A stretch of 51,786 bases of DNA, taken from IMG/VR virus record IMGVR_UViG_3300025104_000002, positions 1-51,786 of that record; one strand, 5' to 3'. Position 1 is the stretch's first letter. The number at the start of each line of letters is the position of its first letter. Positions 29,339 through 45,424 of the stretch are shown one piece after another. Under the pieces are notes generated by a model. It was not told the origin of the DNA. It saw nothing but the letters and a program-made list of their open reading frames with translations, and made no database searches. Made by a program: the position numbers and the translations under genes. The stretch is from a virus (taxonomy: Duplodnaviria; Caudoviricetes).

Positions 29339-29341
29339 AAC

Positions 29342-29375
29342 AAAAAGAAACCCCGGAGCAAAGCTCAACGGGGTT
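29342..29375 (-). terminator. Intrinsic terminator after terL
   Basis: AACCCCG...CGGGGTT stem followed by TCTTTTT on the minus strand. Confidence 0.65.
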
Positions 29376-29436
29376 GAATCCCTCGGAGGGAGGGCAGGGA
29401 GGTGACAACTGCTGAAGAAGCAGCGACGACATCATA

Positions 29437-31689
29437 TCACGTCCACCCCGCCGCAGGCAAACGCTTGATCTCGCGCCGTCGTTGAATAACACCGCCCTCA
29501 GATGCGTTATGCAAATGGAGCATCAGGTACTGCAAGGCTTCGGCCACGTGCGAGTGCTTGTTCTTGTCGATGTCGCCTTCGCCCTTGGGTTTGAAGCGGT
29601 ACCCGCCCATCATGGCCGCTTTGAGGTGCGTGCAGCGCGGATCGACAAGGAACGCCGGGTCGCCGTCCACCTGCCGCATTAGGTACTCGTCCACGGCGTT
29701 GATGCGGGCCGAGATGTTGTTGGTCTTGGCCGGGATGACCTTGAACCCCTCAGCTTTGATGATGTCCACCGCGCTGCGCTCGTCAGTTTGGGCACGTTGT
29801 ACCCCTGCGGGGTCAACGACGATGAGGACCGGGGCACCGGGGAAGCGTTCGTACAGCAGGGGGCGCAGCACCGTGCGGACAAACCGCTGGATGCCCATGT
29901 CGAAGCTCACCGCTTCGTCGAGGATGAGCGCCCGTCCACGGGGGTCTTGCTGCCCGATCACAGCCGCAGGCGTCAGACCCAAGTCCATGCCGATGACGAT
30001 GGGCCGCACCCCGTTGATAATAGGCCGGATGCGCTCCTTCGCCATGTGGTAGTCTGGTCGGAAGTACTTGTACACCGGCATCCCTGCGGATGACAGCCCG
30101 TACTCACCGTCGATGTAGACCCGGATGTACTCCTCCGAGCGACCCTGCGTATCGTAGTACCCGTCCGGCAGGTTCTCGATGTTCTCGGCGTAAGGGCTGC
30201 GGCCCGAGGGCTGCTTGAACACCTCCCACCCGTTGTTGTTGGGTGACACCCCATCTTTGGGATCGAGGTGTTCGAGTTGGTAGTACCACCACGTGTCCAT
30301 CGTCGGCGGGTTGGTGTCGCCCCACATGCCGTACCACGTCGGCCCGCCGTCCTTTGCAGATGGGTACCGCCCGATCCGCTTACTCATCGCATCCACGATG
30401 TCCGGGTGGATGTCGCGGCATTCGTTGAACCACGCGAAGGTCAATTCCAACGAGTTCAGGTTCGCCACGTCATCGGCATCGTCCAGCGCCCGGAACATGA
30501 TCTCGCACTCCACGTCGCCCACCTTGAAGAAGTAGGTCTTCGTGGTCTTCAGGTACTCGCCACACACACCCGGTGGGAACCAGTCGAGGAACGTCTTGAT
30601 GGTCGTGTCCTGCAACTGGCGAGCGGTTTCACGGACGACGGCTGCACGGGTCTTGCGGATGCCGTTCGCGTTGGGTGCCTGCATGGAGGCACGACGCACG
30701 ATCTCGAACGAACAAGTCACGCTCTTGCCTGAGTTGTGGTGAACCGTCCCATCCACAGTCACATAGTTGTTGGTATCGAGAACCTGCATATCCCAATACA
30801 CCTGCTTGAAAGGCAGACGCTCTATGGATACAACGGTCCCGTCGGACACGGAGTTTCTGTATGAACGCGAACACGCAGCGAATAATCGAACTTTCCAACG
30901 GGCAACGCTCGTCCGTAGAGATCGCAGAGCTTGTCGGGCTTTCCCCTCGCTACGTTCGGAAAGTAATGAAGAAGTTCGACCTCCCGCGTTTTGGAGAGGG
31001 TGCTCAGTCGGGATCACGCAACCACCAGTTTGTGTCTGGACGGCGAGTTGACCATGATGGCTACGTCCTAGTAGCCGCCCCCAAAGACCACCGATACGCA
31101 CGGCAACCGTCTGGGCGAAAGACGAAAGTAATTTTCGAACACCGGCTGGTGATGGAGCAAAAGCTGGGTCGATATCTGCTTCCCGAAGAAGTAGTTGACC
31201 ACGTAGACGGGCTGACTCTGCATAACGCGCCAGATAATCTACGGCTGTTTGCGTCAAACAGTGAGCATCTGGCTCAGACTGCGACAGGGCCGCGTATGTG
31301 GTCTCCAGAGGGGGCGAAGAACATAGGTGCAAGGACTGACCGGGGCGTAGAGATTCAACGGGTTGATAGCTATGGTCAGCGCAGAGCACGCGGTGAAATC
31401 CGGCTGCAACAAATTCTCCTCGCAGCGTTGTCACTCGGTATAGATAGTCCTTTCCTTTTGGGAACGCACCGCCACTTGGAGAAAGCTGGTATCGACCCGT
31501 CTTGTCGTTCCAACTTAGAACGCGCACTGGCCGATCTATACGCTCGATGGGGATGGCCCCCTCCTCAGTTTGGATAAGGGTACCACCTGCGACACAGCCG
31601 ACCGGCCCCATGAGGACGCGCATCTTGGCGTCCGAGGCCATGAACTTCCTGCCGGTGGGCGGGGGTGTGTAGTTGATGTCAAGCGGCAT
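29437..31689 (-). CDS. terL: Terminase large subunit precursor with one intein (about 462 aa spliced)
   Basis: Walker A split as GPVG|intein|SGKS; WFNE Walker B, DTNPP, GMDLGLTPA and HSHVAEALQY nuclease motifs. Confidence 0.92.
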   Translation of the reverse strand: MPLDINYTPPPTGRKFMASDAKMRVLMGPVGCVAGGTLIQTEEGAIPIERIDRPVRVLSWNDKTGRYQLSPSGGAFPKGKDYLYRVTTLRGEFVAAGFHRVLCADHSYQPVESLRPGQSLHLCSSPPLETTYAALSQSEPDAHCLTQTAVDYLARYAESARLRGQLLLREADIDPAFAPSPAGVRKLLSSFAQTVAVRIGGLWGRLLGRSHHGQLAVQTQTGGCVIPTEHPLQNAGGRTSSLLSERSEGKARQALRSLRTSVARWKVRLFAACSRSYRNSVSDGTVVSIERLPFKQVYWDMQVLDTNNYVTVDGTVHHNSGKSVTCSFEIVRRASMQAPNANGIRKTRAAVVRETARQLQDTTIKTFLDWFPPGVCGEYLKTTKTYFFKVGDVECEIMFRALDDADDVANLNSLELTFAWFNECRDIHPDIVDAMSKRIGRYPSAKDGGPTWYGMWGDTNPPTMDTWWYYQLEHLDPKDGVSPNNNGWEVFKQPSGRSPYAENIENLPDGYYDTQGRSEEYIRVYIDGEYGLSSAGMPVYKYFRPDYHMAKERIRPIINGVRPIVIGMDLGLTPAAVIGQQDPRGRALILDEAVSFDMGIQRFVRTVLRPLLYERFPGAPVLIVVDPAGVQRAQTDERSAVDIIKAEGFKVIPAKTNNISARINAVDEYLMRQVDGDPAFLVDPRCTHLKAAMMGGYRFKPKGEGDIDKNKHSHVAEALQYLMLHLHNASEGGVIQRRREIKRLPAAGWT
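30733..31596 (-). mobile_element. Intein in the terL Walker A motif (288 aa)
   Basis: Begins CVAGGTLIQTEEG, block B-like AAGFHRV, block F VYWDMQVLDTNNYV, ends VHHN before Ser+1; no LAGLIDADG or HNH in frame. Confidence 0.92.
30861..31577 (+). CDS. HTH-HNH homing endonuclease encoded antisense inside the terL intein
   Basis: GGAG SD 7 nt before ATG; HTH SVEIAELVGLSPRYVRKVM; DGYVLV..P.DH and EHRLVMEQKLGRYLLPEEVVDHVDG...NAPDNL. Confidence 0.85.
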   Translation: MNANTQRIIELSNGQRSSVEIAELVGLSPRYVRKVMKKFDLPRFGEGAQSGSRNHQFVSGRRVDHDGYVLVAAPKDHRYARQPSGRKTKVIFEHRLVMEQKLGRYLLPEEVVDHVDGLTLHNAPDNLRLFASNSEHLAQTATGPRMWSPEGAKNIGARTDRGVEIQRVDSYGQRRARGEIRLQQILLAALSLGIDSPFLLGTHRHLEKAGIDPSCRSNLERALADLYARWGWPPPQFG

Positions 31690-31877
31690 CAGTGCTCCCT
31701 GAGTTCGCCAGACTCGTACTTCTCACGCTGGTCGAGCGCGTTGTGGATGATGACACACGGTTCTTCCTCGTCTGGCGTCGGGTGGCACCAGCAGGCAATG
31801 CTTGTCTCGTGCTCCCGCAGATCGTTCAGTGGCACCACGTGGATCAGGTCATCCGTGCTGCGGTACATGGACTTCAT
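31689..31877 (-). CDS. Hypothetical small protein with His/Cys motif
   Basis: HVVPLNDLREH...CWCHP...HNALD; stop overlaps terL ATG. Confidence 0.7.
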   Translation of the reverse strand: MKSMYRSTDDLIHVVPLNDLREHETSIACWCHPTPDEEEPCVIIHNALDQREKYESGELREH

Positions 31878-32073
31878 CCGGGCCTCCTATCAGCAAAATA
31901 ACAAACTCACGACCACGCTTCTTGGACCGGGTAATGTGCGCCCGGTACGACTTACCCTGCCGGCGGAGTTCATTCTCCACGGTGATGGCCTCACTGGCGC
32001 TGCGCAGCTTCAGGGCCTTGAAGCCCTCGTAAGTTTGGGTGAACAGTTCTTCAATGTTCGATGGCAGTTGCAT
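31849..32073 (-). CDS. Hypothetical protein
   Basis: 74 aa overlapping terS end and the next gene. Confidence 0.55.
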   Translation of the reverse strand: MQLPSNIEELFTQTYEGFKALKLRSASEAITVENELRRQGKSYRAHITRSKKRGREFVILLIGGPDEVHVPQHG

Positions 32074-32530
32074 CTTCGGACTCGATGGTGGTAGCTTCGA
32101 TGGTTCGGGCGTCGCGTGGGTCTGGGCCGAGGTTGATGGTGATCTTCACACCACCGGAATTATTCTCCTGTGCGCCAGCATCCTTCGGCTCTAAACCGGC
32201 CCACTTCACGGTGGATTTGATCAGGTCGGCCTTCACAGCCGGGGAGACGGCTGGGTCGTGGATCAACAGCCAAGATGTCGTCAGGAGTTCTTCAGCCTGC
32301 GCACGCGCCTTGAGCTTGAACGTCAGGCCCTTGTCCCTGATCTCGCCACGGTACTGCTCCACCTTCTTCAAGAAGATGGGGTCGGCGTTGAAGGCGAGGA
32401 TGTCGTTGGCCGTGATGTTGTGCCGCCCCATGATTTCTTGGAGCGTTTCACCACTGCCTTCCAGAGTCAGAGCGACATCGAAGGCCAGCCGGTCATTCCA
32501 CTTGGTGTGGTTTAGAGGTAGGTTGTCCAT
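32051..32530 (-). CDS. Probable terminase small subunit
   Basis: First gene of the packaging operon; helical body with C-terminal VKITINLG strand. Confidence 0.6.
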   Translation of the reverse strand: MDNLPLNHTKWNDRLAFDVALTLEGSGETLQEIMGRHNITANDILAFNADPIFLKKVEQYRGEIRDKGLTFKLKARAQAEELLTTSWLLIHDPAVSPAVKADLIKSTVKWAGLEPKDAGAQENNSGGVKITINLGPDPRDARTIEATTIESEDATAIEH

Positions 32531-32536
32531 ACTGGG

Positions 32537-32567
32537 AATATAGCACCTTGGGTGACGGGGGTGTCAA
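32537..32567 (-). promoter_or_regulatory. Promoter for the terS operon (possibly leaderless)
   Basis: TTGACA-N19-TATATT with TG extension; -10 ends 6 nt before the ATG; no SD. Confidence 0.5.
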
Positions 32568-32712
32568 GAGGATCGGGTATGCGGAGGTTTGGGGGTTATC
32601 GGATCGAGCTAACTTTACACGTACTGTTTTTGGGGTCGTGGTGTGGGGGGTTTACTACAAATGCCGGGGGGTCGAATTTTTCCAGTCCATGTGGGCGGGG
32701 TACCCCCCACCT

Positions 32713-32800
<88 letters not shown>

Positions 32801-32804
32801 GAGG

Positions 32805-32838
32805 CAACTTGACACTTTCGGCGGGTCAAGCGAGTCTG
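32805..32838 (+). promoter_or_regulatory. Early promoter P1
   Basis: CAAC-TTGACA-N17-GAGTCT-G; same architecture as 35149-35182. Confidence 0.6.
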
Positions 32839-32923
32839 AATGTGTCGATGCAGCAATCGTGCTGCAAGACAGAGTGGGTGCAATCCCGCACCCGTTCTTT
32901 CACAACCTGTACTGGAGGTTACT

Positions 32924-33223
32924 ATGTCTGCAAAAACCTTTGAAGGTTCCGTGTCCATCGTCAAAAATACCAAAGGCGAGATTGCTCTCAAGCGTGACCC
33001 CGAAGGTAGGTTCTCGGCAGCGAACGCCGCCGAGTGCTACGCCAAGATGATGGAGCTTTGCAAAAGGCTCAAGTCGCCGGTCAACAAGTATTCCTTGTTC
33101 ATCGCTGATGGCGGAACCGAGCCAGTGATGTTGGCGAACCGCTTTGGCAATCCGTACATCGCGCTTCTTCCGAAGCGCGGCGATGGCAACGTCAAGCGTA
33201 GCGCAGTGACAAAGCTGGCCTAA
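32924..33223 (+). CDS. Early protein, paralog A (99 aa)
   Basis: GGAGG SD; clear similarity to 35229-35528. Confidence 0.85.
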   Translation: MSAKTFEGSVSIVKNTKGEIALKRDPEGRFSAANAAECYAKMMELCKRLKSPVNKYSLFIADGGTEPVMLANRFGNPYIALLPKRGDGNVKRSAVTKLA

Positions 33224-33226
33224 GTT

Positions 33227-33260
33227 GAACCCCGGCCCCTAGCGGGCCGGGGTTCTTTTT
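33227..33260 (+). terminator. Intrinsic terminator
   Basis: 12-bp stem GAACCCCGGCCC/GGGCCGGGGTTC, 5-nt loop, T5 tail. Confidence 0.85.
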
Positions 33261-33275
33261 CCACTGGAGAACACC

Positions 33276-33362
33276 ATGAGCGATGACGCGAAAGCAATCA
33301 TCGGCGCAATCATCTTCGCGCCCATCTTCTACTTTCTGTTGGTCGTAGTGATGAGCGTCTAA
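33276..33362 (+). CDS. 28-aa single-TM peptide
   Basis: GGAG SD; MSDDAKAIIGAIIFAPIFYFLLVVVMSV. Confidence 0.6.
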   Translation: MSDDAKAIIGAIIFAPIFYFLLVVVMSV

Positions 33363-33402
33363 CAACCGGGCCGCACAAGCGGCCCATCTTCTGGAGAGTG
33401 AC

Positions 33403-33909
33403 ATGAACTACGAATTCGTTCCTGGCGACACCATCGAAATCAAGTCCGGCAAAGTCCTTCACAGGATCCGGGCTACAACTTATATTGAGCCGCAAGGTGT
33501 CAAACCCGGCAATCTCGGCGGGTACATTGAGAGCTCTAGAAACCTCTGCGGCAACGCCTGGGTCTGCGGCGAAGCCCAGGTCTGCGGCAACGCCCAGGTC
33601 TGCGGCAACGCCCAGGTCTGCGGCAACGCCCAGGTCTGCGGCAACGCCATGATCAATGAGAACGGTCTCATCTTCTGGGCTTCGAAAGTGGGTAGTGAGA
33701 ACGGAACGCTCACGGTCTACAACACGACGTCCAACGAGCTCGAGGTGACGCGCGGCTGTTTTAGCGGCTCGGTCGATGATTTCTTAGCCGCGTCCAAGGC
33801 TAAGCACGACGACGACACGCACCGCGAATACCGGCTGCTGATCGAGGTCGCTGTGTCTCGCATCACACGCGCACGCGAACGGCTGGAGCAAACACGACCG
33901 AGAAACTGA
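33403..33909 (+). CDS. Hexapeptide-repeat (left-handed beta-helix-like) protein
   Basis: LGGYIES..NL followed by CGNA(W/Q)V repeats on 18-bp DNA repeats; C-terminal VTRGCFSGSVDDF. Confidence 0.85.
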   Translation: MNYEFVPGDTIEIKSGKVLHRIRATTYIEPQGVKPGNLGGYIESSRNLCGNAWVCGEAQVCGNAQVCGNAQVCGNAQVCGNAMINENGLIFWASKVGSENGTLTVYNTTSNELEVTRGCFSGSVDDFLAASKAKHDDDTHREYRLLIEVAVSRITRARERLEQTRPRN

Positions 33910-33985
33910 GACGCGCAACCTCCCATCGTCCCAGGTCTCACGGCAGAGCTTGCGCTGATGGGACTCTACTTCTAACCACAACCAC

Positions 33986-34014
33986 AAACCCGCCGCAAGG
34001 CGGGTTTTCTTTTT
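33986..34014 (+). terminator. Intrinsic terminator with GCAA loop
   Basis: AAACCCGCC-GCAA-GGCGGGTTT-TCTTTTT. Confidence 0.85.
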
Positions 34015-34033
34015 GCCTACGCACTTCGCATCT

Positions 34034-34084
34034 GGGCTGACGACTGACTCGGGCTGACGACTGACTCGGGTTGACGACTGACTG
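34034..34084. repeat. Three tandem 17-bp repeats
   Basis: GGGCTGACGACTGACTC x2 plus GGGTTGACGACTGACTG, followed by G10 at 34091-34100. Confidence 0.9.
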
Positions 34085-34119
34085 ACCTGCGGGGGGGGGG
34101 CGTGCCCTCGCTTTTCTTT

Positions 34120-34790
34120 GTGTTTTTCGAACACCATACGTCGGGGGTTTATAGCACCAGCCTCGCCGCTACCTTACGACTTTACATCGGGGGGACTGGG
34201 CCGCCGGGCAGCAGCTTTACACTTCGCTATAACATTACACTTTACATGTCAAGTTGTAGAGCGAGGCACGGCAAGCTATGCGATCTGATGTCAACTTACC
34301 GTGATTTTTTACATTTACCCTAGCTAACTATACGCATGTAAAGTGTCAAGTTGTGGAAAAAGTCCAGTGAAATCAACCACTTGCGCTGATGAGACCACGG
34401 GAGCTGGCTCTGTAAAACAATCTATACGATATAGAAAATATAGGTTTTTTCTCAATACCCTTTCACAAAGGCGATGGCTCCTACCATCCAAGACCTTGAC
34501 ACTCCGTGTGCGCCACATTACCTCAAAAATCGTAGATCATCTAGATCGTCACGCACTTTCTCCAATAAAATCAAGTACTTAGACGATCCATTTGACAAGG
34601 TACTTGATGAGGCACAATCTAGATTTTTCAGCGAAAAAGCCGAAAAATGCACATGCAACAGACATCAGATTGATGTCATCGGCTGATCCCATTTGATGTC
34701 TTAGAGACAGCGCAGAGACATACTGAGAGACATCACTTGACTGTCGCACAGACATCGAGTAGAGTTAGTACCGCACCGCTGTTGGTGTGT
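34120..34790. other. AT-richer non-coding region with repeated motifs (candidate replication origin/control region)
   Basis: Repeated TTTACA/TGTAAA, TGTCAAGTTGT x2, AGACAT repeats, several palindromes; no convincing ORF. Confidence 0.5.
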
Positions 34791-34805
34791 ACACCGGAGC
34801 TTTAC

Positions 34806-35111
34806 ATGAGGACCAAACAGTTGACCATCCGCCTGACCAACGACTTTCACAAAGCCCTCGTGGACTACTGCGCCGCCAACATGATCCCTGTCAGCACATT
34901 CATGGTCCAACAGACTGCCAAAGCCATTGGATACAAGCCCAAGCAGGCTACCACCCGCACTTATCAGGACCACACACCCGTGGTACAGCCCCCGCAACCA
35001 CCACTTGACAGTGATGGACTCATCCCAGACCTTGGGGAACTGGACGAAAGCGACTGGGACATGGAGGATTTACAGCGCCGCGCCGCTGCGGCCCCGCTTA
35101 GAAACGTCTGA
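34806..35111 (+). CDS. Ribbon-helix-helix-like DNA-binding protein with acidic tail
   Basis: GGAG SD; KQLTIRLTNDFHKALVDYCAANMIPVSTFM resembles the Arc/CopG pattern. Confidence 0.55.
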   Translation: MRTKQLTIRLTNDFHKALVDYCAANMIPVSTFMVQQTAKAIGYKPKQATTRTYQDHTPVVQPPQPPLDSDGLIPDLGELDESDWDMEDLQRRAAAAPLRNV

Positions 35112-35148
35112 GGCGCACTTTACAGTGCTTTTCCGGGATAACGCCGCC

Positions 35149-35182
35149 CAACTTGACGCTCGGCGCGGCGTCGGCGAGACTG
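35149..35182 (+). promoter_or_regulatory. Early promoter P2
   Basis: CAAC-TTGACG-N17-GAGACT-G. Confidence 0.6.
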
Positions 35183-35228
35183 GCTCTGCCTCGGTGCTGG
35201 GCTTTCAGCGCCTCTTTAAGGAGCCATC

Positions 35229-35528
35229 ATGGCGAAGATTTACAAAGGTCAAGTTTCTGTTTACAGCAACAGTCAGAACCAACTGGTTGTAAAGCCCGAT
35301 GCTGAGGGCAAGTTCAATCACGAGAATGTGGCTGAACTGTACAAGACCATGTGTCAACTGGCGAAGAAACACAAGATGGAAGTTCGAGTGTTCAAGCCGG
35401 AACAACTCGGTGACACCCCGGTTCTCATGGCGGATCGTTGGGGTAAGCCTTACATCGCTCTGTTGCCGGAACGTAAAGCCCCCGGCGCTCTGACCGTCAT
35501 CAAGCCTGCTGTTCAGAAGCTGGCCTGA
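35229..35528 (+). CDS. Early protein, paralog B (99 aa)
   Basis: AAGGAG SD; shares EG.F, PV..A.R.G.PYIALLP.R and terminal AV.KLA with paralog A. Confidence 0.85.
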   Translation: MAKIYKGQVSVYSNSQNQLVVKPDAEGKFNHENVAELYKTMCQLAKKHKMEVRVFKPEQLGDTPVLMADRWGKPYIALLPERKAPGALTVIKPAVQKLA

Positions 35529-35545
35529 TCCTACTGGAGACTACC

Positions 35546-35746
35546 ATGTCTGAGAAAGTCACTGTTCAGCAATTACCCTACATCGCCCCTCGCAAAACCC
35601 GTAAGCAAGAAAACCTCCGCTTCGTTGTCAAGTGGATCGAGGGAGACACGATGTACTTCCGCTGGTACAAGCGGGACGATGCTGCTTGTGCTTTCCTCAA
35701 CCGGCTTCGAGGAGCCGGGTTTGAAGCTCGTGTCCTGATGAAGTGA
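35546..35746 (+). CDS. Hypothetical early protein
   Basis: GGAG SD, 66 aa. Confidence 0.7.
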   Translation: MSEKVTVQQLPYIAPRKTRKQENLRFVVKWIEGDTMYFRWYKRDDAACAFLNRLRGAGFEARVLMK

Positions 35747-35754
35747 GGTCTGCC

Positions 35755-36000
35755 ATGTACAACATCGAAGTGACTGACACCTTTGGTGGTGAAGCCAACT
35801 ACTGCTGGGTCAAACGTGGTTCCACCAAGGCCACGTCCCGTCGAGGGATCATCGAAGCTGTCAAACGTGTTGCTGGTTGGACAGGCTGGTGCCGTGTGAA
35901 AGTGGTGTGCCAAGCTGGTGACTTCTGGGAGATTCGTCCAGTGGACACCAGCGGGGTATGCCAAGTGGCCTTTGTTACTTGGTCTGATGAAGTGCGGTGA
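35755..36000 (+). CDS. Hypothetical early protein
   Basis: GAGG SD; EVTDTFGGEANYCWVKR. Confidence 0.7.
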   Translation: MYNIEVTDTFGGEANYCWVKRGSTKATSRRGIIEAVKRVAGWTGWCRVKVVCQAGDFWEIRPVDTSGVCQVAFVTWSDEVR

Positions 36001-36004
36001 CATC

Positions 36005-36256
36005 ATGGCTGAACACCGCACTGTCATCATCCACATGGATGCTGTTCAACAGCAGACCATGCAACACGAGACTGACCACACTGAGTGGTACAGGGCCATT
36101 GGTCGACTGTCAACATGGAACATGACGTTCCCAACTGTCAACATCTACAAGGATGGTGACACTGACATGGTTGCGGTCTACCTCAACGAACAGGGTGAAC
36201 GTGGTTATGTCATCGGTGCCGTATGGCATGGCGACCACTACGGGTTTCACTCCTGA
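36005..36256 (+). CDS. Hypothetical early protein
   Basis: 83 aa ending YGFHS; tight packing. Confidence 0.6.
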   Translation: MAEHRTVIIHMDAVQQQTMQHETDHTEWYRAIGRLSTWNMTFPTVNIYKDGDTDMVAVYLNEQGERGYVIGAVWHGDHYGFHS

Positions 36257-36372
36257 AGGTATGTTCACCAACTGTCTCAATCCCGAGGACTGACATATCA
36301 GCTTACAAGGCATCACCCAGTGGTGCCTTGTGGGATGCGCTGTCGCATCGTATCCATCTGAGGTTCACACCT

Positions 36373-36705
36373 ATGAAGATCACCAACCGAGATGCACGGA
36401 AGTTCGTGCAGCAACGGCTCCCCTTCCAAGGGAGCAACCTGTTCGCCCACACTCGGACCAGCGAGGATGGAACCACGTGGTACGTGGTTTACAGCTACGG
36501 CCCGCACCATCCGCTGTTCGTCTGGGCCGATGGGATTTGGTTTGAGAACGAGGACCGCTTCAGTGTCACCACTTCCAAGCATCGGAGTCAGACACACCCG
36601 CTCTGCCCCACTGTGCCGCTGTCCACCGAGTGGATGCAGCGGCTGGCTCGTGGGGGGTACTGGGCCATTGCCAAGGAACGCATCCTCCAAGGAGTTGCAG
36701 CATGA
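36373..36705 (+). CDS. Hypothetical early protein
   Basis: YVVYSYGPH, SVTTSKH motifs; GAGG SD. Confidence 0.7.
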   Translation: MKITNRDARKFVQQRLPFQGSNLFAHTRTSEDGTTWYVVYSYGPHHPLFVWADGIWFENEDRFSVTTSKHRSQTHPLCPTVPLSTEWMQRLARGGYWAIAKERILQGVAA

Positions 36706-37307
36706 CCACGTTCACCGAAGCACAACAGGCCCTGATCGACAGGTACCGGGACATCAACACCGACCACGAATGGTGGGATTCCATCTACAGCAACTTCAAA
36801 AAGCGTATGGAAGCCATCGGTATCCGCGTTGAGCGGATGTACTTTAGTGGCTTCTGGTCACAGGGTGATGGTGCCTGCTTCGAGGGTTGGGTCGATGACT
36901 GGAGCCTGTTCCTGCCAACGGTGGGGATAACCAACGACGTGTTGATGGAGTTTGCCAACAACCACTGGGCGTTCAGTGTGAAGCACAGCGGTCACTACTA
37001 CCACGAGAACTGCACGGTCTTCGATGCCGACATGCCCAACCCAGACGGGGAGGATGATGACTGGTTCATCGAGCGATACAGTCCCTATAAGGTGGATGAC
37101 TTCCGCTCTGTGGTATGGCTCGTTGTGCTGCGGGGGTTTGACTTCTCCTCGATGGAGGAGACGTTCCGCGATGCATTCAAGGGTCACATGCGGCAGTTGT
37201 ACAAGGACTTGGAGGAGGAGTACGAGTACCTCACAAGTGATGAGGCGGTGTGGGAGTCCATCGTAGCCAACGAGCTTGATGATGAACTGGAGGAAATATG
37301 CGAGTGA
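36702..37307 (+). CDS. Acidic phage protein (family often loosely labelled antitoxin)
   Basis: FSGFWSQGDGACFEG, HYYHE, LEEEYEYLTSDE motifs; AAGGAG SD. Confidence 0.65.
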   Translation: MTTFTEAQQALIDRYRDINTDHEWWDSIYSNFKKRMEAIGIRVERMYFSGFWSQGDGACFEGWVDDWSLFLPTVGITNDVLMEFANNHWAFSVKHSGHYYHENCTVFDADMPNPDGEDDDWFIERYSPYKVDDFRSVVWLVVLRGFDFSSMEETFRDAFKGHMRQLYKDLEEEYEYLTSDEAVWESIVANELDDELEEICE

Positions 37308-37462: not shown

Positions 37463-37658
37463 TCCACCGCTGCGACTGTTCTGCCTGCGGTATGGCAAGT
37501 ACGGCCCCAAGGTACGTGATTCCAAGGGGTACTTCATCTACTTTGACGACAAGGAGAAAGCGAAACGAACCAGAGACGAGCTAAACGCCGGTCTTGACCG
37601 GCCCATCTTCGTGGTATCCCACGGCCCTGACCATCGACCCAAGTCCGAAAGGAAGTAA
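37398..37658 (+). CDS. Hypothetical protein (true start uncertain)
   Basis: YFDDKEKAKRTRD...VSHGPDH; ends 2 nt before the AAA gene. Confidence 0.5.
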   Translation: MVKPTSTPRGYDMPTSASSSDSPPLRLFCLRYGKYGPKVRDSKGYFIYFDDKEKAKRTRDELNAGLDRPIFVVSHGPDHRPKSERK

Positions 37659-37660
37659 CC

Positions 37661-38644
37661 ATGCGGGCCACACTACTCAAAGAAACCATCAAGTCCCTGT
37701 TTCCCATCACCCGTACCCTGTGTATCGAGGGTGCTCCCGGCGGTGGTAAGACGACCATCGTCCACGAAGTGGCACAGGAACTTGACGTTCCCTGCATCGA
37801 ACGTCACATGCCGACCATGCTGGTGGAGGATTTCGGTATCCTGTTCCCCGATGGTGATAAGCTGCACTACAAGCTGCCCGACTGGTTCCCCGTCAAGGGC
37901 AAAGCTCCAGAGCGTGGCATCCTGCTGTTCGACGACCGCAACCAAGCTGGCCCTGACTTGCAGAAGGTCTTGGCTAACATCTGCCAAGCCCGAACCCTTC
38001 ACGGTATCCCCATGCCGGATGGCTGGATGGTGGTGTGCACCGGCAACAGGCAGTCTGACCGTGCTGGTGCCAACCGGGTGCTGAGTCATCTCCGCAACCG
38101 TGAGACGGTGCTGGAGTTGGAAACCCACCTCGACGACTGGACTGCATGGGCCATCAACCACGGTGTCAAGCCCGAGGTGATCAGCTTCATCCGCTTCCGT
38201 CCCGGTCTGCTGCACGACTTCGATCCGCAGCGGGATCAGAACGCCACCCCCCGAGCATGGGTTGAGGGTGTGTCCGACGTGCTGGGTACTGTCCCTGCCG
38301 AGGCTGAGTTCGAGTGCTTCAAGGGTGCTGTGGGTGAGGGTGCTGCTGCCGAGTTCGTGGGCTTCCTCCGCATTTTCCGTAAGCTGCCCAACCCTGACGC
38401 TATCCTGCTCAACCCTACCACTGCGGACGTTCCCACAGACCCGGCTATCCTGTACGCCCTGTCTGGCGCACTGGCCCAACGTGCCACGGATGACAACATG
38501 GATCGGTTCGTGACCTACATCGACCGGATGCCACCGGAGTTCAGCGTACTATCCATGTCTATGGCAGTACGGCGTAACCCCGACCTTGCCAACACGCAAG
38601 CCTTCGTCAAGTGGAGTTTGGCCCACCAAAGTGTGCTGTTCTGA
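37661..38644 (+). CDS. MoxR-like AAA+ ATPase
   Basis: Walker A GAPGGGKT, Walker B ILLFDD, TGNR..DRAG and TPRAW motifs. Confidence 0.85.
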   Translation: MRATLLKETIKSLFPITRTLCIEGAPGGGKTTIVHEVAQELDVPCIERHMPTMLVEDFGILFPDGDKLHYKLPDWFPVKGKAPERGILLFDDRNQAGPDLQKVLANICQARTLHGIPMPDGWMVVCTGNRQSDRAGANRVLSHLRNRETVLELETHLDDWTAWAINHGVKPEVISFIRFRPGLLHDFDPQRDQNATPRAWVEGVSDVLGTVPAEAEFECFKGAVGEGAAAEFVGFLRIFRKLPNPDAILLNPTTADVPTDPAILYALSGALAQRATDDNMDRFVTYIDRMPPEFSVLSMSMAVRRNPDLANTQAFVKWSLAHQSVLF

Positions 38645-38645
38645 C

Positions 38646-38807
38646 ATGCGGTGGCCGAGTCGGGACAAGCCTGAGCTTTACCAACGAGGCCGCTGGTGGA
38701 TCGTTCGGTGGTACTCCCCAGTGGAGAAACGCTGCCGAGCGATCCGCACCAAGTCGGAAACCTACGCCAAACTCATATACCAACATCTTTCAGGAGTGAC
38801 AGAATGA
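38646..38807 (+). CDS. Small hypothetical protein
   Basis: 53 aa filling the gap; ATGA overlap with the next gene. Confidence 0.5.
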   Translation: MRWPSRDKPELYQRGRWWIVRWYSPVEKRCRAIRTKSETYAKLIYQHLSGVTE

Positions 38808-39652
38808 ATCTCACCGACCGTGCCCTGCTGGTGCAACTCAACGTGTCCCAGTGGACTGCCCGCAAGTACGACAAACGTGCTTCCAAGGAGGTGACGACGG
38901 CCCACGGTGCAGCGTCTGCTGCTGGCCGTTTCAACAAGTCCCTGCTGCCCATGAACGACAAGCTGGAGAACATCTACCGCAAGACCACGCTGATACGCAC
39001 CAAGTACTATGAGTCCACCCTACCGTGGGGTATCGATGGTACGCGGATGCTACCCACTGCCAACTATCTGTCCTTCATGACCGACTTCCGCAAGGAGAAG
39101 GGCGAGTGGGAGCAGTTGGTGCAGGAGTTTCTCGACGAGTACGGCCAGATGAAGCTCGATGCCCAGCGCACCCTTGGTTCGCTGTACGACCCGGATGACT
39201 ATCCAACCGCGCTGGAGCTGCGATACAAGTTCAACATGGACATGGCCGTGTTCCCTGTACCCAGTGCGGATTTCCGTGTCGCCATCGGTTCGGAGGAACT
39301 GAAACGCATCCAGCAAGACGTTGAGCGACGTGTGAAGGAGGCAGAGCTGGCGGCACTGAAGGACGTGTGGAACCGGCTGTACGAACGGGTCAAGCACATA
39401 GCCGAGAAGCTGGCCGACCCCGAGGCGATCTTCCGTGACTCGATGATCGAGACCGCCAAGGAAATCTGTGCGCTACTGCCCCGGCTGAACTTCGCTGACG
39501 ACCCCAACTTGGAAGCCATGCGTCAGCAGGTTGAGGCATCCTTGATCAAGCCCCCTGAAGCTCTGCGCAACGACCCTGCCCTGCGCCGTGATACCGCCGC
39601 TGAAGCGAAGGCGATCATGGACAAGATGGGTACCTTCATGGGAGCACTCTGA
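38804..39652 (+). CDS. Helical protein of AAA/vWA phage modules (DUF3150-like)
   Basis: AGGAG SD; WTARKYDK, TLPWG..G.RMLP and IFRDS motifs. Confidence 0.65.
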   Translation: MNLTDRALLVQLNVSQWTARKYDKRASKEVTTAHGAASAAGRFNKSLLPMNDKLENIYRKTTLIRTKYYESTLPWGIDGTRMLPTANYLSFMTDFRKEKGEWEQLVQEFLDEYGQMKLDAQRTLGSLYDPDDYPTALELRYKFNMDMAVFPVPSADFRVAIGSEELKRIQQDVERRVKEAELAALKDVWNRLYERVKHIAEKLADPEAIFRDSMIETAKEICALLPRLNFADDPNLEAMRQQVEASLIKPPEALRNDPALRRDTAAEAKAIMDKMGTFMGAL

Positions 39653-39843
39653 TGGAACTGGCCGCTCTCTTGGACTCCATGAAGCAAGCGGCCATCCTCG
39701 TTCAAGTGAAGGGTGTGTAACTTGACAGACACCTCGGGAAGACCGAGAAAGAAGTAGTGGCAGGCATCAACTCATGGGCAGTATCTGTCCGTGCTGGTGA
39801 TCTGCTGCGTGTGATAACTGAACTCGAACGGAGAATGAAATGA
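39652..39843 (+). pseudogene. Small ORF interrupted by an in-frame TAA
   Basis: TGATG coupling at the start, ATGA coupling at the end, TAA at 39718-39720. Confidence 0.5.
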
Positions 39844-40982
39844 CAACTGCAACCATCGACCTGAAAAAGCTGGGTACCAAGCTGGCGAAAGCCAAGACTG
39901 CTCTGATCCTGGAGTATCCCTTCGTTGGTACCATCGCCCTGAACCTGCCCTTCGAGTTCGACGAGAACATCCCCACTGCTGCAACCAACGGCAAGCGGAT
40001 CAAGTTCAACCCCGAGTTCGTGGACAGCCTGACCGATGAGGAGGTCAAGTTCCTCGTGGCCCACGAGTGTTTCCACCCCATGCTGGAGCACAACTTCCGG
40101 CGCGGTAACAGGGCACCGCGCAAGTGGAACATGGCCGCTGACTACGTGATCAACAAGTTGTTGGTCGATGAGGGTATCGGTCGGATGCCCAGGATGGGGC
40201 TGCTTGACAACAACATCTACAACGCCGGTCACGGTACCAGCGAGGGCATCTACAACATCCTGCCGGAACAGCCTGAAGACGGCAGCTCTGGTGCTGGTGA
40301 ACCCGGTGGCCCGCTCGACGATTGCGAGGACGGTGAGGGTAGCCCTGCTGAACAGCAGCAGCTACAGGCCGAGTGGAAGGTGAAGGTGGCCCAAGCTGCA
40401 CAGGCAGCGAAGATGATGGGCAAGATGTCTGCCAACATGCAACGGCTTGTCAATGAGGTGCTGCAACCCAAGGTGGACTGGCGTGAGGTGCTGCAACGCT
40501 TCCTCGTCAAAGCCCGCAACGACAGCCGCTCGTTCGCTCGGTTCAATCGCCGATTCATTGCGCAAGGGATGTACCTGCCCAGTGTCAACGGTGAGGCGAT
40601 GGGTGAGGTGCTGTTCGCAGTGGACTGCTCTGGCTCCATCGACCAGCATACGATCAACCAGTTCGCTGCTGAGGTCACCAAGGTCAAGGAAGACCTGATG
40701 CCTGAGCGTATCCACGTGATGTACTTCGACAGCGAGGTCAGTCACGTGGAGAGCTACGAACCACACGATGATCTGGACATCAAACCCCACGGCGGCGGCG
40801 GTACCGACTTCGCTCCGGTGTTTGCCAAGATCATTGAACTCGGGATCAACCCGGTCGCCATCGTGTTCCTCACTGACCTGTGCTGCAACAGCTTCGGTGA
40901 TCAGCCCGATGCACCTGTGCTGTGGGTCACGACCGATGCAGACAAGGCACCCTTCGGTGAAATTGTGGAGATGGTTGACTGA
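39840..40982 (+). CDS. Metallopeptidase-vWA protein (DUF2201-like)
   Basis: TAATNG, AHECFH (HExxH), WNMAADYVIN; MIDAS DCSGS, GGGGTDF, FLTD. Confidence 0.85.
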   Translation: MTTATIDLKKLGTKLAKAKTALILEYPFVGTIALNLPFEFDENIPTAATNGKRIKFNPEFVDSLTDEEVKFLVAHECFHPMLEHNFRRGNRAPRKWNMAADYVINKLLVDEGIGRMPRMGLLDNNIYNAGHGTSEGIYNILPEQPEDGSSGAGEPGGPLDDCEDGEGSPAEQQQLQAEWKVKVAQAAQAAKMMGKMSANMQRLVNEVLQPKVDWREVLQRFLVKARNDSRSFARFNRRFIAQGMYLPSVNGEAMGEVLFAVDCSGSIDQHTINQFAAEVTKVKEDLMPERIHVMYFDSEVSHVESYEPHDDLDIKPHGGGGTDFAPVFAKIIELGINPVAIVFLTDLCCNSFGDQPDAPVLWVTTDADKAPFGEIVEMVD

Positions 40983-41089
40983 TGATGCTGGCCCTACCCG
41001 ATGGGAATACGCGTGGCTCCGATATGTGCGCTGAGCGTCGCGCCAAGGGGGCCGTTTACCGGATGGGTCTGCTTTGACTGGAGAAGCGA

Positions 41090-41278
41090 ATGATGTTTGT
41101 AGATGTTTGTATGAAGGACACGGAAGAACCGCGCGAAGTGGCTAATCGCCATGAGATTTTGGTTGGAGCTTACCAACCATCGTCAGCTCGATACGAGCGC
41201 GAGAAGAAGGAAGTCGTGCTGGAGGTTGACCTCGACAAACTCACTGCCCTGAGTACCGCTGCCAAGTTCGGACTGTGA
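41090..41278 (+). CDS. Hypothetical protein
   Basis: GGAG SD, 62 aa. Confidence 0.5.
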   Translation: MMFVDVCMKDTEEPREVANRHEILVGAYQPSSARYEREKKEVVLEVDLDKLTALSTAAKFGL

Positions 41279-41676
41279 GGGGCACGATGCCACGTATCGA
41301 CGAAGAAAAACGCCGAGAGTGGCTTCGCGCCTTGCGCCGGTTCAAGTACGGTATCAAGGTACGGGCCAAGCTCGGTGTACTGCAAATCATCTGTGAGCGA
41401 GTTCATACGCAACGTAAGGGTAAACAACAGTGGGACGTACCCCAGTGGGAGCACGACAGATGGGTTACGTTCCTGTACACTTGCATACGGGATAACGAGT
41501 TCCCACCGGAGTTGCTGGAAGGGTTTGTAAAAACCGCCGAGGTGACATTTCTCACCCCGAATAGACAACCCACGGTGGACAAGGTACTCGACGCTGTGAA
41601 TCAAGTATGCAAACAAAACAGCAGGGCACTCCGGCGCAAGTTCGGGGTGTTTGTGCGAGGTGACAATGGGTACTAA
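41275..41676 (+). CDS. Hypothetical protein
   Basis: GTGA overlap, 133 aa. Confidence 0.6.
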   Translation: MRGTMPRIDEEKRREWLRALRRFKYGIKVRAKLGVLQIICERVHTQRKGKQQWDVPQWEHDRWVTFLYTCIRDNEFPPELLEGFVKTAEVTFLTPNRQPTVDKVLDAVNQVCKQNSRALRRKFGVFVRGDNGY

Positions 41677-41834
41677 GAAGAAGCCGCGCAAGAAGTACCG
41701 ACCCAAACCAGTACTAAAGAACCCCGTGGGGGTACGTGCTGGAGAGTCTAACGCCAGTGCGGAACCATAGCTTTCCGCTGACGGAACAACAGATTGCTGA
41801 GCGCAAGACCCGCCCTCTTTTGAAAGGAATCATC
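41666..41834 (+). pseudogene. Basic ORF apparently frameshifted at a G5 run
   Basis: GAGGTG SD; MGTKKKPRKKYRPKPVLKNPVG continues as YVLESLTPV only in the +1 frame. Confidence 0.4.
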
Positions 41835-42137
41835 ATGGCGAAGATCACCAAGGAGCAGCAAGTTGTTGCAGTACACCACTCGATGGTGGGGCAGGAGTTC
41901 GTTGAGTCTCCCCGTGCCAAGGACAGGCAGGTGGGCGGCGACCATTACAAGGTGATGGGCGTGGAACCGTGGGACGTGGTGGATACGTGGCCCCGTGAGC
42001 AGCGCATCGGCTACTACCGCGGCAACGCACTGAAGTACCTGATGCGCATGGGCAGCAAAGACGCCGCGCCGATGGAGGTGGCAAAGGGCCAGCACTACAT
42101 CCAGAAGTTGTTGGAGGTTCTCAATGAGCAAGAGTAA
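41835..42137 (+). CDS. DUF3310 / T7 gp1.7-like (possible nucleotide kinase) protein
   Basis: QVGGDHYK...EPWD...GYYRGNALKYLMR.G.KD...KGQHY. Confidence 0.8.
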   Translation: MAKITKEQQVVAVHHSMVGQEFVESPRAKDRQVGGDHYKVMGVEPWDVVDTWPREQRIGYYRGNALKYLMRMGSKDAAPMEVAKGQHYIQKLLEVLNEQE

Positions 42138-42233
42138 CCCACCCTGTTGCAGTTCGGGGCTGCGCTGGAGTTCGGTGTGCCCCAGCGCGTGATCAGTCGG
42201 ATCGTCAGACGTGCATCCTACAAGGACATTTAA
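42124..42233 (+). pseudogene. Relic of an HNH endonuclease C-terminal HTH
   Basis: Start-less AALEFGVPQRVISRIVRRASYKDI* ending 1 nt before the polA ATG. Confidence 0.45.
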
Positions 42234-42234
42234 T

Positions 42235-45200
42235 ATGATGGACATCGTAACCATTGATTTTGAAACCTACTACGACAAGGACTATTCCCTGTCGAAGATG
42301 ACCACTGAATCCTACATCCGTGACCAGAGGTTCGAGATCATCGGTGTGGGCGTCAAGGTCAACAACTACCCCACCGACTGGTACAGCGGCGACAACCCCG
42401 GTAAGTTCCTCAAGTCGCTGAACTACAGCAATAAGGCCATCCTGTGTCACAACACAGCGTTCGATGGTGCCATCTTATCGTGGCACTTCGACATCCGTCC
42501 GAGACTGTGGTTGGACACCCTGAGCATGGCGCGTCCCTTTCACCAGTTGACGGTGGGCGGTAGCCTCAAGGCGTTGGCCCAATACTACGGGTTGGGCGTC
42601 AAGGGCGAGGAAGTGGTAGCTGCAATCGGCAAGCGGCGCAAGGATTTCACCCCCGAAGAACTTGCCCGGTACGGGCAGTATTGCATCAATGACGTGAACT
42701 TGACCAAGGCACTGTTCGACAAGCTCAAGGTGGGGTTCCCTGTCAGCGAACTGCTGGTCATCGACCAGACGCTGCGCATGTACACCGAGCCGGTGATCGA
42801 ACTGGATGTGCCACTCTTGGAGAAACATCTTGAGGAAGTCCGCACCCGCAAGCGCACCCTGATCTCTGACATCGGCCACGGCATGGGTGGTGAGCAGGCG
42901 GTGCAGGACATGCTGATGTCCAACGACAAGTTCGCCGAGTACCTCAAGCGGCTGGGTGTGGAGCCGCCCACCAAGATCAGCGCCAAGACGGGCAAGGAAT
43001 CGTGGGCCTTCGCCAAGACTGACAAGGGCATGACCGACTTGCTGGAACATCCTGATGAGCGTGTGCAGGCTGCGGTCGCTGCCCGACTGGGTGTGAAGTC
43101 CACCCTCGAAGAAACCCGCACCGAGAACCTGATCGCCGTAGCGAAGCGTGGGCGACTACCCATCATGCTCAACTACTACGGTGCCCACACGGGGCGCTTC
43201 AGTGGCGGCGACAAGCTCAACCTCCAGAACCTGCCGAGCCGTGGCAACACGACCATCCGCAGGGCGCTCAAGGCACCCGAGGGCCACGTGCTCATCTCGT
43301 GTGACTCCGCGCAGATCGAAGCACGTACTGTGGCATGGGTGGCAGGGCAGGACGATCTGGTGCAGGCGTTCCGTGACAAGCGGGATGTGTATTCCGAGTT
43401 CGCCTCCGAGGTCTACGGTCGCAAGATCACCAAGGCCGACAAGGTGGAGCGGTTCGTGGGTAAGACCTGTATTGCCGAGGGAACTCTTGTATTATCGCAT
43501 CACGGCTGGAAGCCTATTGAGTCGGTGACGACCGACGATTTGTTGTGGGATGGACAGGAGTGGGTATGCCATCAAGGATTACTGAACAACGGCATCAAGC
43601 CAACATTGAATCTGTGCGGCGCTTGGTTGACACCGGATCACCAAGTCTGGTCAGGGACGCAGTGGCTGGAAGCGCAATCAGTAGTAGCCGACGAAGATAC
43701 CCTCTACCGAGCATTGGACACCGGAGCGGAAAACTTACCGTCACAGGCTACATTGCTGGCACCCGAGGCGGGGTCAGTGCCCTTGTGGTCAGATGCGACT
43801 GCAACGAAGCCGAGTATCGAGTTGACCACCATAACTTCAAAAATTTCAGAAGCACTCGCTGCCCTCTGTGCGCCAAGAAAGCATCGGTTGCAAAACGCTA
43901 TTGGATGTACAGCGAAGCAATGGCGGATGATGACCACCGGACTCGCTTGCTCAATCGTCTCGCTTCGGCAATCACTCGCTGCCACTCTCCATCCAACAGA
44001 GCGTATCAGCACTATGGTGGGCGCGGCATACGGGTGTGCCCCGAGTGGCGCTTTGACCGAGCAGAGTTCCTGCGGTACGTCCAGACCCTCGACGGTTGGG
44101 ACAACCCGACTTTCGAGATGGATCGGATCGATGTGGACGGGCATTATGAACCGGGGAATATCCGCTTCGTATCGCGGAGCGATAACCTCCGCAACAAGCG
44201 CAAGATCGCAGACCTTGAAGCGCGTGTACGACATCTTGAACAGCGGCTCAAGGAACAGGTTCACGATCCTGACTGAAGCTGGCCCGCTCGTTGTCCACAA
44301 CTGCGTTCTGGGTCTGGGCTACGGCATGGGCGCAGAGAAGTTCCGACGCACTCTGGAGATCGGCCAAGGCGGCATCAACGTGGTGATCGACATCAACGAG
44401 GCAGAGCGGATCGTCCGCCTCTACCGACAGAAGAACTGGAAGATCGTACAGTTTTGGCAGAAGTGCGGCAACGCACTGAAGGACATGTTGTACGGTGGCA
44501 GCAATGCGCTGCACCCGCAGGTTCGCTACGACCCCAAGGGTATCCGCTTGCCAAACGGGTTCTACATCCAGTACCCGGCGCTGCGCGAGACGGCCAATGG
44601 GTTCATGTACATCTCGGATGCCCGCACCTACCAGAAGGCGCTCAAGGATCGAGTGCTCACTGGCGCACCGGCTGACGACATCGCATGGACTCGCGTCTAC
44701 GGCGGCAAGGTGACGGAAAACTGCATCGCCGCAGGGACGGAGGTGCTGACCAACCGAGGCTGGGTTCCTATAGAGAACGTGCAGTCGGCAGACATGGTGC
44801 ATGACGGAGTGGAGTTCGTTCGCCACGGTGGGACAGTGTTCAAATCTGTCCAAGACTGTATCACCATTGATGGCGTGTGGATGACCCCAGACCACGAGGT
44901 ACTGACAAATACCGGATGGCAAGCTGCATCACAGAACCCCGAACCTTACAGACCAAACCTTCGGCATGTTGACCGCTATCAACTGCGAGTGGACCACGCG
45001 CAGGACCAACACCACGAACAAGCGCAACACCGAGCGCAGAGTGGATGTACCGGCGCTCAGTGCGCAGACTGGGATACCCAGATCAACCCTGTACTACCGA
45101 CTCAAGCACGGCCTGTCTTTGACATCCTCAACGCAGGACCAAGACAACGGTTCGTAGTTCGTGGCGATAACGGTCCGTTCATTGTGCATAACTGTGTGCA

Positions 45201-45423: not shown

Positions 45424-45424
45424 G

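Follow-up and report, generated by a model that had tools for sequence, protein, structure and literature searches.

Probable composite inteins with overlaid nuclease genes in the terL and polA genes of a caudoviricete virus

Results

Three inteins interrupt terL and polA

The DNA studied here, called the window below, is the whole of the 51,786-base virus record IMGVR_UViG_3300025104_000002 (Duplodnaviria; Caudoviricetes), which is estimated to be 94% complete and has a G+C content of about 59%. Its similarity to other sequences at the DNA level is faint, the nearest being phages of Burkholderia, Pseudomonas and Pectobacterium. The span analysed is bounded by the far end of an intein in the large terminase gene terL, on the minus strand, and by the end of the second of two inteins in polA, the plus-strand gene of a family A DNA polymerase. 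An initial annotation of this DNA had proposed that all three inteins carry normal splicing blocks and that each has a homing-endonuclease gene overprinted in a different reading frame. The three inteins lie exactly where they had been placed, each with Cys1, the block B His and a terminal His-Asn followed by Ser or Cys (Table 1). Of the two possible starts of polA, GTG 42211 and ATG 42235, the latter is more likely.

Table 1. Features of the terL and polA region (window positions; ORF, open reading frame; aa, amino acids; nt, nucleotides)
Feature	Position	Strand	Remarks
terL (large terminase) precursor ORF, 750 aa	29437..31689	-	Walker A P-loop split by insert; Pfam Terminase_3 23.7 bits (cut-off 23.2)
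TerL intein, 288 aa, class-1-like	30733..31596	-	junction GPVG/C...HHN/SGKS; Cys1, block B ...CADH, terminal His-His-Asn, +1 Ser
Promoter-like site for antisense nuclease, TTGAAA-17 nt-TACAAC	30806..30834	+	antisense within C-terminal splicing-domain codons; weak in the window
GGAG Shine-Dalgarno-like motif	30850..30853	+	7 nt 5' of ATG 30861
Antisense homing-endonuclease gene in TerL intein, 238 aa	30861..31577	+	helix-turn-helix 30879-30980; HNH_3 core 31140-31250
polA (family A DNA polymerase with 3'-5' exonuclease) precursor ORF, 1070 aa	42211..45423	+	Pfam DNA_pol_A 2.6e-29, DNA_pol_A_exo1 8.9e-6
PolA intein 1, 278 aa	43468..44301	+	junction GKT/C...VHN/C; Cys1, block B TPDH, block F Asp255, terminal His-Asn, +1 Cys
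+2-frame ORF (putative nuclease) in PolA intein 1	43545..44276	+	open from 43521; likely starts GTG 43662 or ATG 43566
Zinc ribbon of +2-frame protein, CxC...CxxC	43794..43871	+	N-terminal beta-barrel precedes
Core of +2-frame protein, YGGRGI...DRID...Y...N...N	44013..44201	+	
PolA intein 2, 157-aa mini-intein	44722..45192	+	junction TEN/C...VHN/C; Cys1, TPDH, terminal His-Asn, +1 Cys
+1-frame nuclease relic, 83 codons stop to stop	44906..45157	+	phrog_3377 2e-5

In block B of the TerL intein (CADH) the His is kept and the Thr replaced, and the boundaries C...HHN followed by Ser or Thr are identical in 9/9 relatives. A host-frame alignment of 46 sequences of PolA intein 1 showed C1, T55, H58, D255, H277 and N278 to be invariant. 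At the polA position of intein 1 (site 1), 69/83 homologous loci passed a test for C...HN followed by Cys or Ser with no stop in the frame, while those that did not pass were truncated contigs, four "SN" variants and one broken frame; the terminus is Ser-Asn, not His-Asn, in L042, L081, L091 and L092 (L-numbers label the homologous loci that were compared with the window). In the family of intein 2 (site 2) the boundaries passed at 28/32 loci, the remaining four being truncated or unmatched. The boundaries that we assigned in Salmonella phage Ent1 (L001) are those of the curated GenBank intein feature.

In an AlphaFold2 (AF2) model of intein 1 the block-mean predicted local distance difference test score (pLDDT) is no lower than 95 over residues 1-90 and 250-278, and about 27-46 over residues 100-243. 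The PDB entries listed by Foldseek for this model were nearly all inteins, Vint/BIL or hedgehog HINT domains, with a probability of 0.84-1.00 for ranks 1-25 and E-values that are weak (0.012 at best). Intein 1 is predicted by this modelling to consist of two well-folded HINT halves and a disordered host-frame middle. Canonical homing inteins carry an in-frame LAGLIDADG or HNH domain as part of the same polypeptide. Pfam and NCBIfam gave no nuclease at E<=1 for the host-frame intein sequences, which agrees with the earlier statement that this frame holds no nuclease motif.

The inserts could also be group I introns with a homing-endonuclease gene, and the GenBank note on gp38/gp39 of Sodalis phage SO-1 (L002, 924-4112) does record its polymerase intein as a "type I self-splicing intron". 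However, each insert leaves the host frame open and has the termini and blocks of an intein; a HINT fold is predicted for the ends of intein 1; the insert ends are under purifying selection in the host frame; and Rfam found no intron family at E<=1 in 29000-46000. We therefore regard introns as extremely unlikely.

To describe how patchily the inserts are distributed we took the 80 closest TerL relatives (C-extein 86-91% identical) and the 80 closest PolA relatives (66-86% identical). In the TerL set 78/80 are uninterrupted and read MGPVG/SGKS, and both intein carriers (2/80) also have the nuclease. PolA site 1 is empty (gap 0) in 77/80 relatives and site 2 in 75/80, with 3 not assessable. Because nearly all of the closest relatives are uninterrupted at the same sites, the inserts are precise in-frame insertions in catalytic motifs. 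Such a patchy distribution among close relatives is expected for mobile elements and fits active or recent mobility.

The nested genes keep a fixed phase

The antisense gene in the TerL intein encodes an HNH-type protein. It matches Pfam HNH_3 with 29.6 bits (gathering cut-off 24.8) and, over its full length, phrog_10730 "HNH endonuclease" (4e-55), and the motif EHRLV...VDH.DG..LHN...NLRLF..N..HL is invariant in 10/10 sequences of this nuclease, with D-H...N...H complete. Full-length homologues lie antisense and in the same phase at 9/9 non-self loci, where the host frame has 0 stops versus 5-25 in the other four frames; the carriers include the Pectobacterium phage Ymer group and Pseudoalteromonas phage PHS3. 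The N-terminal splicing domain is encoded opposite the final ~85 codons of the gene. In L007 (5142-5678), and at the same position in L008, L009 and L011, a free-standing distant homologue of the polA +2 nuclease family, with about 33-47% identity in the core, lies some 2 kb away from the terL gene that bears the intein.

The +2-frame protein of PolA intein 1 sits at +2 within a stop-free host frame of at least 300 amino acids in 82/89 matching loci; the other seven comprise six free-standing distant homologues and one member of the +1 family. Among GenBank phages 881 records match this protein, and of 40 matches listed 34 sit under a DNA polymerase annotation. In Ent1 (Salmonella), SO-1 (Sodalis) and MR14 (Pseudomonas) the nuclease is at +2 by annotated coordinates. 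The +1 family, to which the relic in intein 2 belongs, is nested at +1 in 28/31 loci, the others being two truncated contigs with an open host frame and one free-standing copy. The antisense, +2 and +1 placements of the initial annotation are thus borne out and recur in relatives. A nuclease in frame with the host was seen in no case among the loci examined. The nuclease ORF is present in every full-size intein copy seen and absent from the mini-intein of L095, and both nuclease types have free-standing relatives. Carriers are related to phages of Salmonella, Escherichia, Sodalis, Pseudomonas, Pectobacterium and Pseudoalteromonas. In Ent1 a canonical in-frame LAGLIDADG intein is annotated in the helicase (4661-5612); together with the overprinted intein of its polymerase it shows that canonical and overprinted inteins coexist in one genome.

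Ordinary inteins whose in-frame endonuclease had been broken by frameshifts or assembly errors would leave nested ORFs as decaying remains. Decay does occur: PolA intein 2 holds a true relic, the nuclease ORF is cut to about 170 amino acids with the host frame intact in L033 (2995-3504) and L117 (3148-3654), and the host frame is broken in L073 (2692-3589). Yet the same offset is found in more than 100 independent assemblies and also in isolate genomes, the nuclease frames are under purifying selection, none of those examined lying in the host frame, and a frameshift cannot yield an antisense gene, all of which makes this explanation very unlikely.

Selection acts on the nuclease frame

We estimated the ratio of non-synonymous to synonymous substitution rates (dN/dS) by the pairwise Nei-Gojobori procedure in the nuclease frame and in the host frame over identical bases. 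In the TerL family dN/dS is 0.17-0.36 in the nuclease frame vs 1.02-2.23 in the host frame, and in the other two family sets it is 0.12-0.37 vs 0.59-1.23 and 0.05-0.27 vs 1.09-2.03, values that can be read only qualitatively as synonymous sites are near saturation in many pairs and some rows are "nan". Substitutions are concentrated at nuclease codon position 3, and identity is higher in the nuclease frame than in the host frame at 51/51 site-1 loci. These signals are qualitative and consistent across all three families.

A sliding analysis of PolA intein 1 (40/51 loci with at least 55% identity; L062 excluded) showed that constraint passes from the host frame to the nuclease frame near 43690 and back to the host frame near 44216, so that the change of constrained frame falls at the borders of the splicing domains. 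In the TerL intein (7/9 loci; L008 and L009 excluded as duplicates of L007) the nuclease frame dominates from 30861 to about 31300, and 31300-31550 is mixed, with both frames partly constrained. This dual constraint is located where the tail of the nuclease opposes the N-terminal splicing domain.

Stop avoidance was assessed by holding the nuclease protein constant and shuffling synonymous codons (5000 shuffles per ORF). Shuffled sequences had a mean of about 5 host-frame stops, and zero stops were reached in a fraction of 0.0006 and 0.001 of shuffles for the two intact nuclease ORFs. The remaining frames hold 7-16 stops. These data support purifying selection on the nuclease frame and a host frame that over the same bases is merely kept stop-free. 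Of the checks that the initial annotation had suggested, frame-specific dN/dS points to a constrained nuclease frame and stop-codon avoidance to a host frame kept open.

Candidate start signals

For the antisense nuclease a sigma-70-like site at the same position as the promoter-like site of the window (~30 nucleotides 5' of the gene) was found in relatives by upstream alignment and a promoter scanner, with scanner scores of 11/12 in L011, 10/12 in L013 and 9/12 in L007. A GGAG or near variant stands at the matching place in most of 8 aligned close relatives, read by eye.

For the +2-frame ORF codon 40 (GTG 43662) is ATG, GTG or TTG in 46/52 sequences, the A/G toggle falling at a host-synonymous position, and this start coincides with the switch from host to nuclease selection. 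The alternative ATG 43566 has AGGAG ahead of it, and its column 8 is ATG in 34/52 sequences. Shine-Dalgarno-like motifs precede both candidates.

The polA nucleases could instead be made as fusions to the N-extein and N-terminal intein part by programmed -1 or +1 frameshifting. Both are on the sense strand, at offsets that suit -1 (for +2) and +1 shifts, and the nuclease frame is open for some codons 5' of the likely starts. However, the polA frame has no X_XXY_YYZ slippery heptamer in 43500-43720, the length of the upstream open stretch is very variable between loci, the conserved start column and the Shine-Dalgarno-like motifs just described speak for initiation at a start codon, and such a scheme is inapplicable to the antisense case. 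Frameshift fusion is in our view quite improbable.

Nature of the nested proteins

Taken together these results make it likely that the window carries three class-1-type inteins from three separate, widespread families of composite elements, in which the splicing domain is encoded in the host frame and the nuclease is a separate gene overlaid on another frame or strand. The two-part mobile element that the initial annotation had proposed accords with selection on the nuclease frame, a stop-free host frame, the disordered middle, the sporadic distribution and the presence of a nuclease in every full-size copy.

Several results weigh against this reading, besides the saturation of synonymous sites given above. 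Related loci are not independent samples. Curated profiles recognise the inteins poorly: for the TerL intein all matches are below threshold (Intein_splicing, E=0.0016 and 18.7 bits against a cut-off of 35.8; an intein-containing DnaB model, 2.9e-4), for intein 2 Hint_2 reaches 14.8 bits, below its cut-off of 28.4, and no curated Pfam or NCBIfam intein profile matches intein 1. The promoter-like site of the window was not called by the promoter scanner, which gave 0 sites in both regions of the window inteins that were scanned. Short contigs 95-99% identical to the terL intein occur in three public RNA-labelled runs, some pieces beginning at 30810, 30863 and 30894 and none covering 30644-30810, but these are contigs only, carrying no strand, start or level, and we draw nothing from them.

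The remaining contrary points concern the +2-frame protein. HNH enzymes have their general-base (catalytic) His at the end of the first strand. The +2 family has the motif D-R-x-D...Y...N...N with Arg at this position in 40/40 aligned sequences, and 0/40 members match a Pfam HNH model at E<=1, NCBIfam also giving none. Searches of PDB by sequence and profile found no solved relative, only a zinc-ribbon resemblance to COX5B (E 0.06). The best nuclease hit, to PacI (3m7k) on the core, is weak (Z 4.2, root-mean-square deviation 3.5 over 85 residues) and stands amid unrelated rows of equal Z.

The model of this protein is itself good. AF2 gave a mean pLDDT of 89 for a small beta-barrel, a zinc ribbon, a helical part and a beta-beta-alpha unit at residues 151-200 (strands 151-155 and 167-171, then a helix 172-200). 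Against PDB, Foldseek returned nothing at E<=0.001 for this model, and a wide VIA-align search gave Z<=5 throughout, with Tudor/KOW-like rows on the N-terminal barrel. In the ESM Atlas it fell among viral clusters without Pfam families, with NUMOD/AP2-bearing clusters at 0.83-0.84 as a lead only. By profile it matches phrog_374 "HNH endonuclease" (2e-35), the top PHROG families being all labelled HNH endonuclease, and many matching phage proteins in BFVD are named HNH or homing endonuclease.

The nested proteins, and chiefly the +2 protein, might thus be real and selected but not, or no longer, homing nucleases, acting for example as DNA-binding regulators, recombination nickases or anti-competitor weapons. 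The Arg for His, the missing Pfam matches and the weak fold matches would suit such a role, as would a profile unrelated to that of the bona fide HNH_3 family and modules of a DNA-binding type (zinc ribbon, beta-barrel, long helix). On the other hand the +2 protein always accompanies a patchily distributed intein, its nearest PHROG and BFVD relatives are labelled homing endonucleases, the beta-beta-alpha unit and the Asp and Asn residues are conserved, and in the terL nuclease the HNH motif is complete. We consider a role other than homing unlikely. We describe the +2 protein as a putative His-Me-type nuclease rather than as an HNH enzyme. The claim that an HNH-type gene lies in each intein holds for terL, the only nested gene for which our sequence comparisons make this identity secure; for the +2 gene it leans on PHROG labels, and the +1 gene is a relic. 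Likewise the profile check that had been proposed found HNH_3 in the terL ORF, while it gave sub-threshold or no intein matches and no Pfam HNH for the +2 ORF.

PolA intein 2 as a decayed copy

The +1-frame relic retains an N-terminal DGKLHH..TPNLT.QTFGML and a C-terminal helix-turn-helix (its first ~25 and last ~55 residues), and it is without start codon, zinc ribbon and catalytic core. Compared with the intact 224-amino-acid ORF of L097 it has an internal gap of ~141 amino acids; at the nucleotide level there is a ~411-nucleotide deletion near 44997 and one of ~42 nucleotides near 45112, with ACG and TGA where L097 has ATG. Relatives L096-L110 carry an intact nuclease of ~220 amino acids in the same +1 frame at the same site, in inteins that are mostly ~300 amino acids long (261-308). 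Judged from these alignments, PolA intein 2 is a decayed copy of the +1 composite element. A second mini-intein at polA site 2 (L095, 2980-3468; 163 amino acids) has lost part of the interior of the +1 nuclease in a deletion that resembles that of the window without being identical to it, which suggests repeated nuclease loss.

A third polA insertion site was seen in L096 (1-1100, on the same contig as L098), after ...GRWSG/CLVADTRVL. Here the host frame runs into a stop at 456 and is taken up again in another frame from 633, and a 302-amino-acid ORF (188-1093) matching the +2 nuclease family lies between the host-frame parts. Such an arrangement would suit a split intein or fractured gene, and also a copy that is broken.

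Origins of the composite elements

An hhalign comparison of the terL and polA nuclease profiles gave a probability of 0.4%. The terL and polA nucleases are therefore unrelated, and the number of independent origins is two or more. In the two polA composites both the splicing domains (41-47% identity) and the nucleases (about 38% over the core) are homologous, the nucleases occupying the same position between block B and block F. It is possible, and we propose it tentatively from these similarities, that a single ancestral element, intein and nuclease together, gave rise to both and was re-framed afterwards (+2 vs +1). The repeated independent capture of free-standing genes suggested in the initial annotation hence stands for terL versus polA; for the two polA composites common descent with a change of frame may apply instead. 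None of the captures took place in this genome: by their spread in the loci compared, the composites are old and widespread families of fixed phase.

Other features of the window

G+C content, elsewhere about 0.59, dips to 0.49-0.51 at 19001-21000 and 34001-35000, which may be foreign or mobile inserts. Just 3' of the terL stop, at 29342-29407 on the minus strand, is a sub-threshold Rfam match to Betaproteobacteria_toxic_sRNA (35.6 bits against 50; E 5e-4), which may be a mere terminator-like hairpin.

Discussion

Our analysis points to composite elements in which protein splicing and homing are encoded in different frames of the same DNA. We infer splicing, nuclease expression and cleavage to proceed as follows. 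The host ribosome would translate through the nuclease-coding stretch, giving an unstructured linker, and the two HINT halves would fold and splice out themselves and the linker, so that TerL or PolA is restored. The nuclease of the TerL intein would be made from an antisense transcript, using the promoter-like site and the GGAG-ATG start within the codons of the C-terminal splicing domain. For PolA intein 1, ribosomes would start within the polA mRNA, at GTG 43662 or ATG 43566, to make the nuclease. Once made, a nuclease would cut the intein-free alleles that co-infecting phages carry, in or close to the site of insertion, and their repair would bring in the complete element. PolA intein 2 would represent the decayed end state: with the start and core of the +1 nuclease gone, what is left is a mini-intein with vertical inheritance only.

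The architecture as such is already published. Non-canonical inteins of actinobacteriophages with the nuclease antisense or out of frame, to which the initial annotation had pointed, are indeed described by Gosselin, Arsenault & Gogarten (bioRxiv 10.1101/2025.01.02.630785), and invasion of inteins by free-standing nucleases is proposed there. These inteins share with ours a splicing domain in the host frame, a nuclease antisense or out of frame between the splicing blocks, an unstructured host-frame middle, free-standing nuclease kin, the invasion of TerL, a patchy distribution and the fact that annotation pipelines miss them. They differ in the nucleases (antisense LAGLIDADG, antisense VSR-like and frame-3 endonuclease VII-like) and in the genes (Pol III alpha, minor capsid, TerL and ThyX), whereas here we find an antisense helix-turn-helix-HNH_3 protein with a promoter-like site in splicing-domain codons, and a zinc-ribbon "DRxD" family at +2 or +1 in a family A polymerase. 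The passages of that preprint compared here do not mention Salmonella, Proteobacteria or Gram-negative hosts.

An intein in cyanobacterial dnaX with an antisense or out-of-frame LAGLIDADG gene is older knowledge (Gorbalenya 1998 and Gogarten 2002, as cited in 10.1101/2025.01.02.630785) and was revisited by Phillips et al. (bioRxiv 10.64898/2026.09.14.751524). It too has an overlapping nuclease ORF in an otherwise mini-type intein, is sporadic, and has been proposed to result from secondary invasion of a mini-intein, but it is a single element in a cellular gene with a nuclease of another class, LAGLIDADG. A paper from 2025 reported an out-of-frame HNH gene in a phage methylase insertion without a splicing domain (ShiLan). 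There also an insertion that keeps the phage gene in frame and free of stops hides an HNH gene, with a GTG start, in a different frame; in that case the insert stays in the protein, whereas the inserts described here have intein termini and a predicted HINT fold. In fractured genes a free-standing nuclease gene lies between the halves of a split intein (Dassa et al. 2009, PMC2677866). The nuclease is again translated apart from the splicing halves, but the host gene consists of two ORFs that are trans-spliced, whereas terL and polA are single continuous ORFs. Canonical homing inteins such as that of the Ent1 helicase likewise interrupt essential genes at conserved catalytic motifs and have their nuclease between blocks B and F. 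The canonical nuclease is part of the same polypeptide; here it would be a separate gene product and the host-frame stretch a mere spacer. In the part of the literature that was searched we found no report of an antisense HNH gene in TerL inteins or of +2 or +1 nucleases in PolA inteins. What is new is the nuclease families, the host genes and the occurrence in phages of Gram-negative bacteria.

The prediction that standard gene callers would miss such nested genes is matched by public records, which overlook or mislabel them. The Ent1 record notes the polymerase intein just as "encoding splicing domains". In the Ymer group (L004, Pectobacterium phage Ymer, 1128-3392) TerL is called "hypothetical protein" and the nested nuclease is uncalled. 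TerL of Pseudoalteromonas phage PHS3 (L005, 1206-3329) is annotated with 392 amino acids though a 708-amino-acid intein-bearing frame is open. Our comparison thus flags systematic annotation errors: nested nucleases go uncalled, TerL is recorded as a hypothetical or shortened protein, and an intein is taken for a group I intron.

These elements extend an intein layout recently described in actinobacteriophages and cyanobacteria to many phages of Gram-negative bacteria, and a fixed phase kept in more than 100 loci is strong conservation. Separate translation of the nuclease could be tested in cultivable phages, among them Jerseyvirus, Dhillonvirus and Pectobacterium phages. The natural series of an intact antisense gene, an intact +2 gene, an intact +1 gene in relatives and a deleted relic bears on the view that splicing came first and the nuclease was captured later, and long stop-free spacer frames over a real gene are of interest for the design of overlapping genes and for intein engineering. 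If the two polA composites were indeed re-framed from one ancestor, the translated spacer frame of an intein would be swappable in evolution, and overprinted, in-frame and split inteins would be interconvertible states of one life cycle. If this is true, and with an antisense HNH gene carrying its own promoter, many "mini-inteins" of Gram-negative phages would be fully armed homing elements, those of model Salmonella and E. coli phages included.

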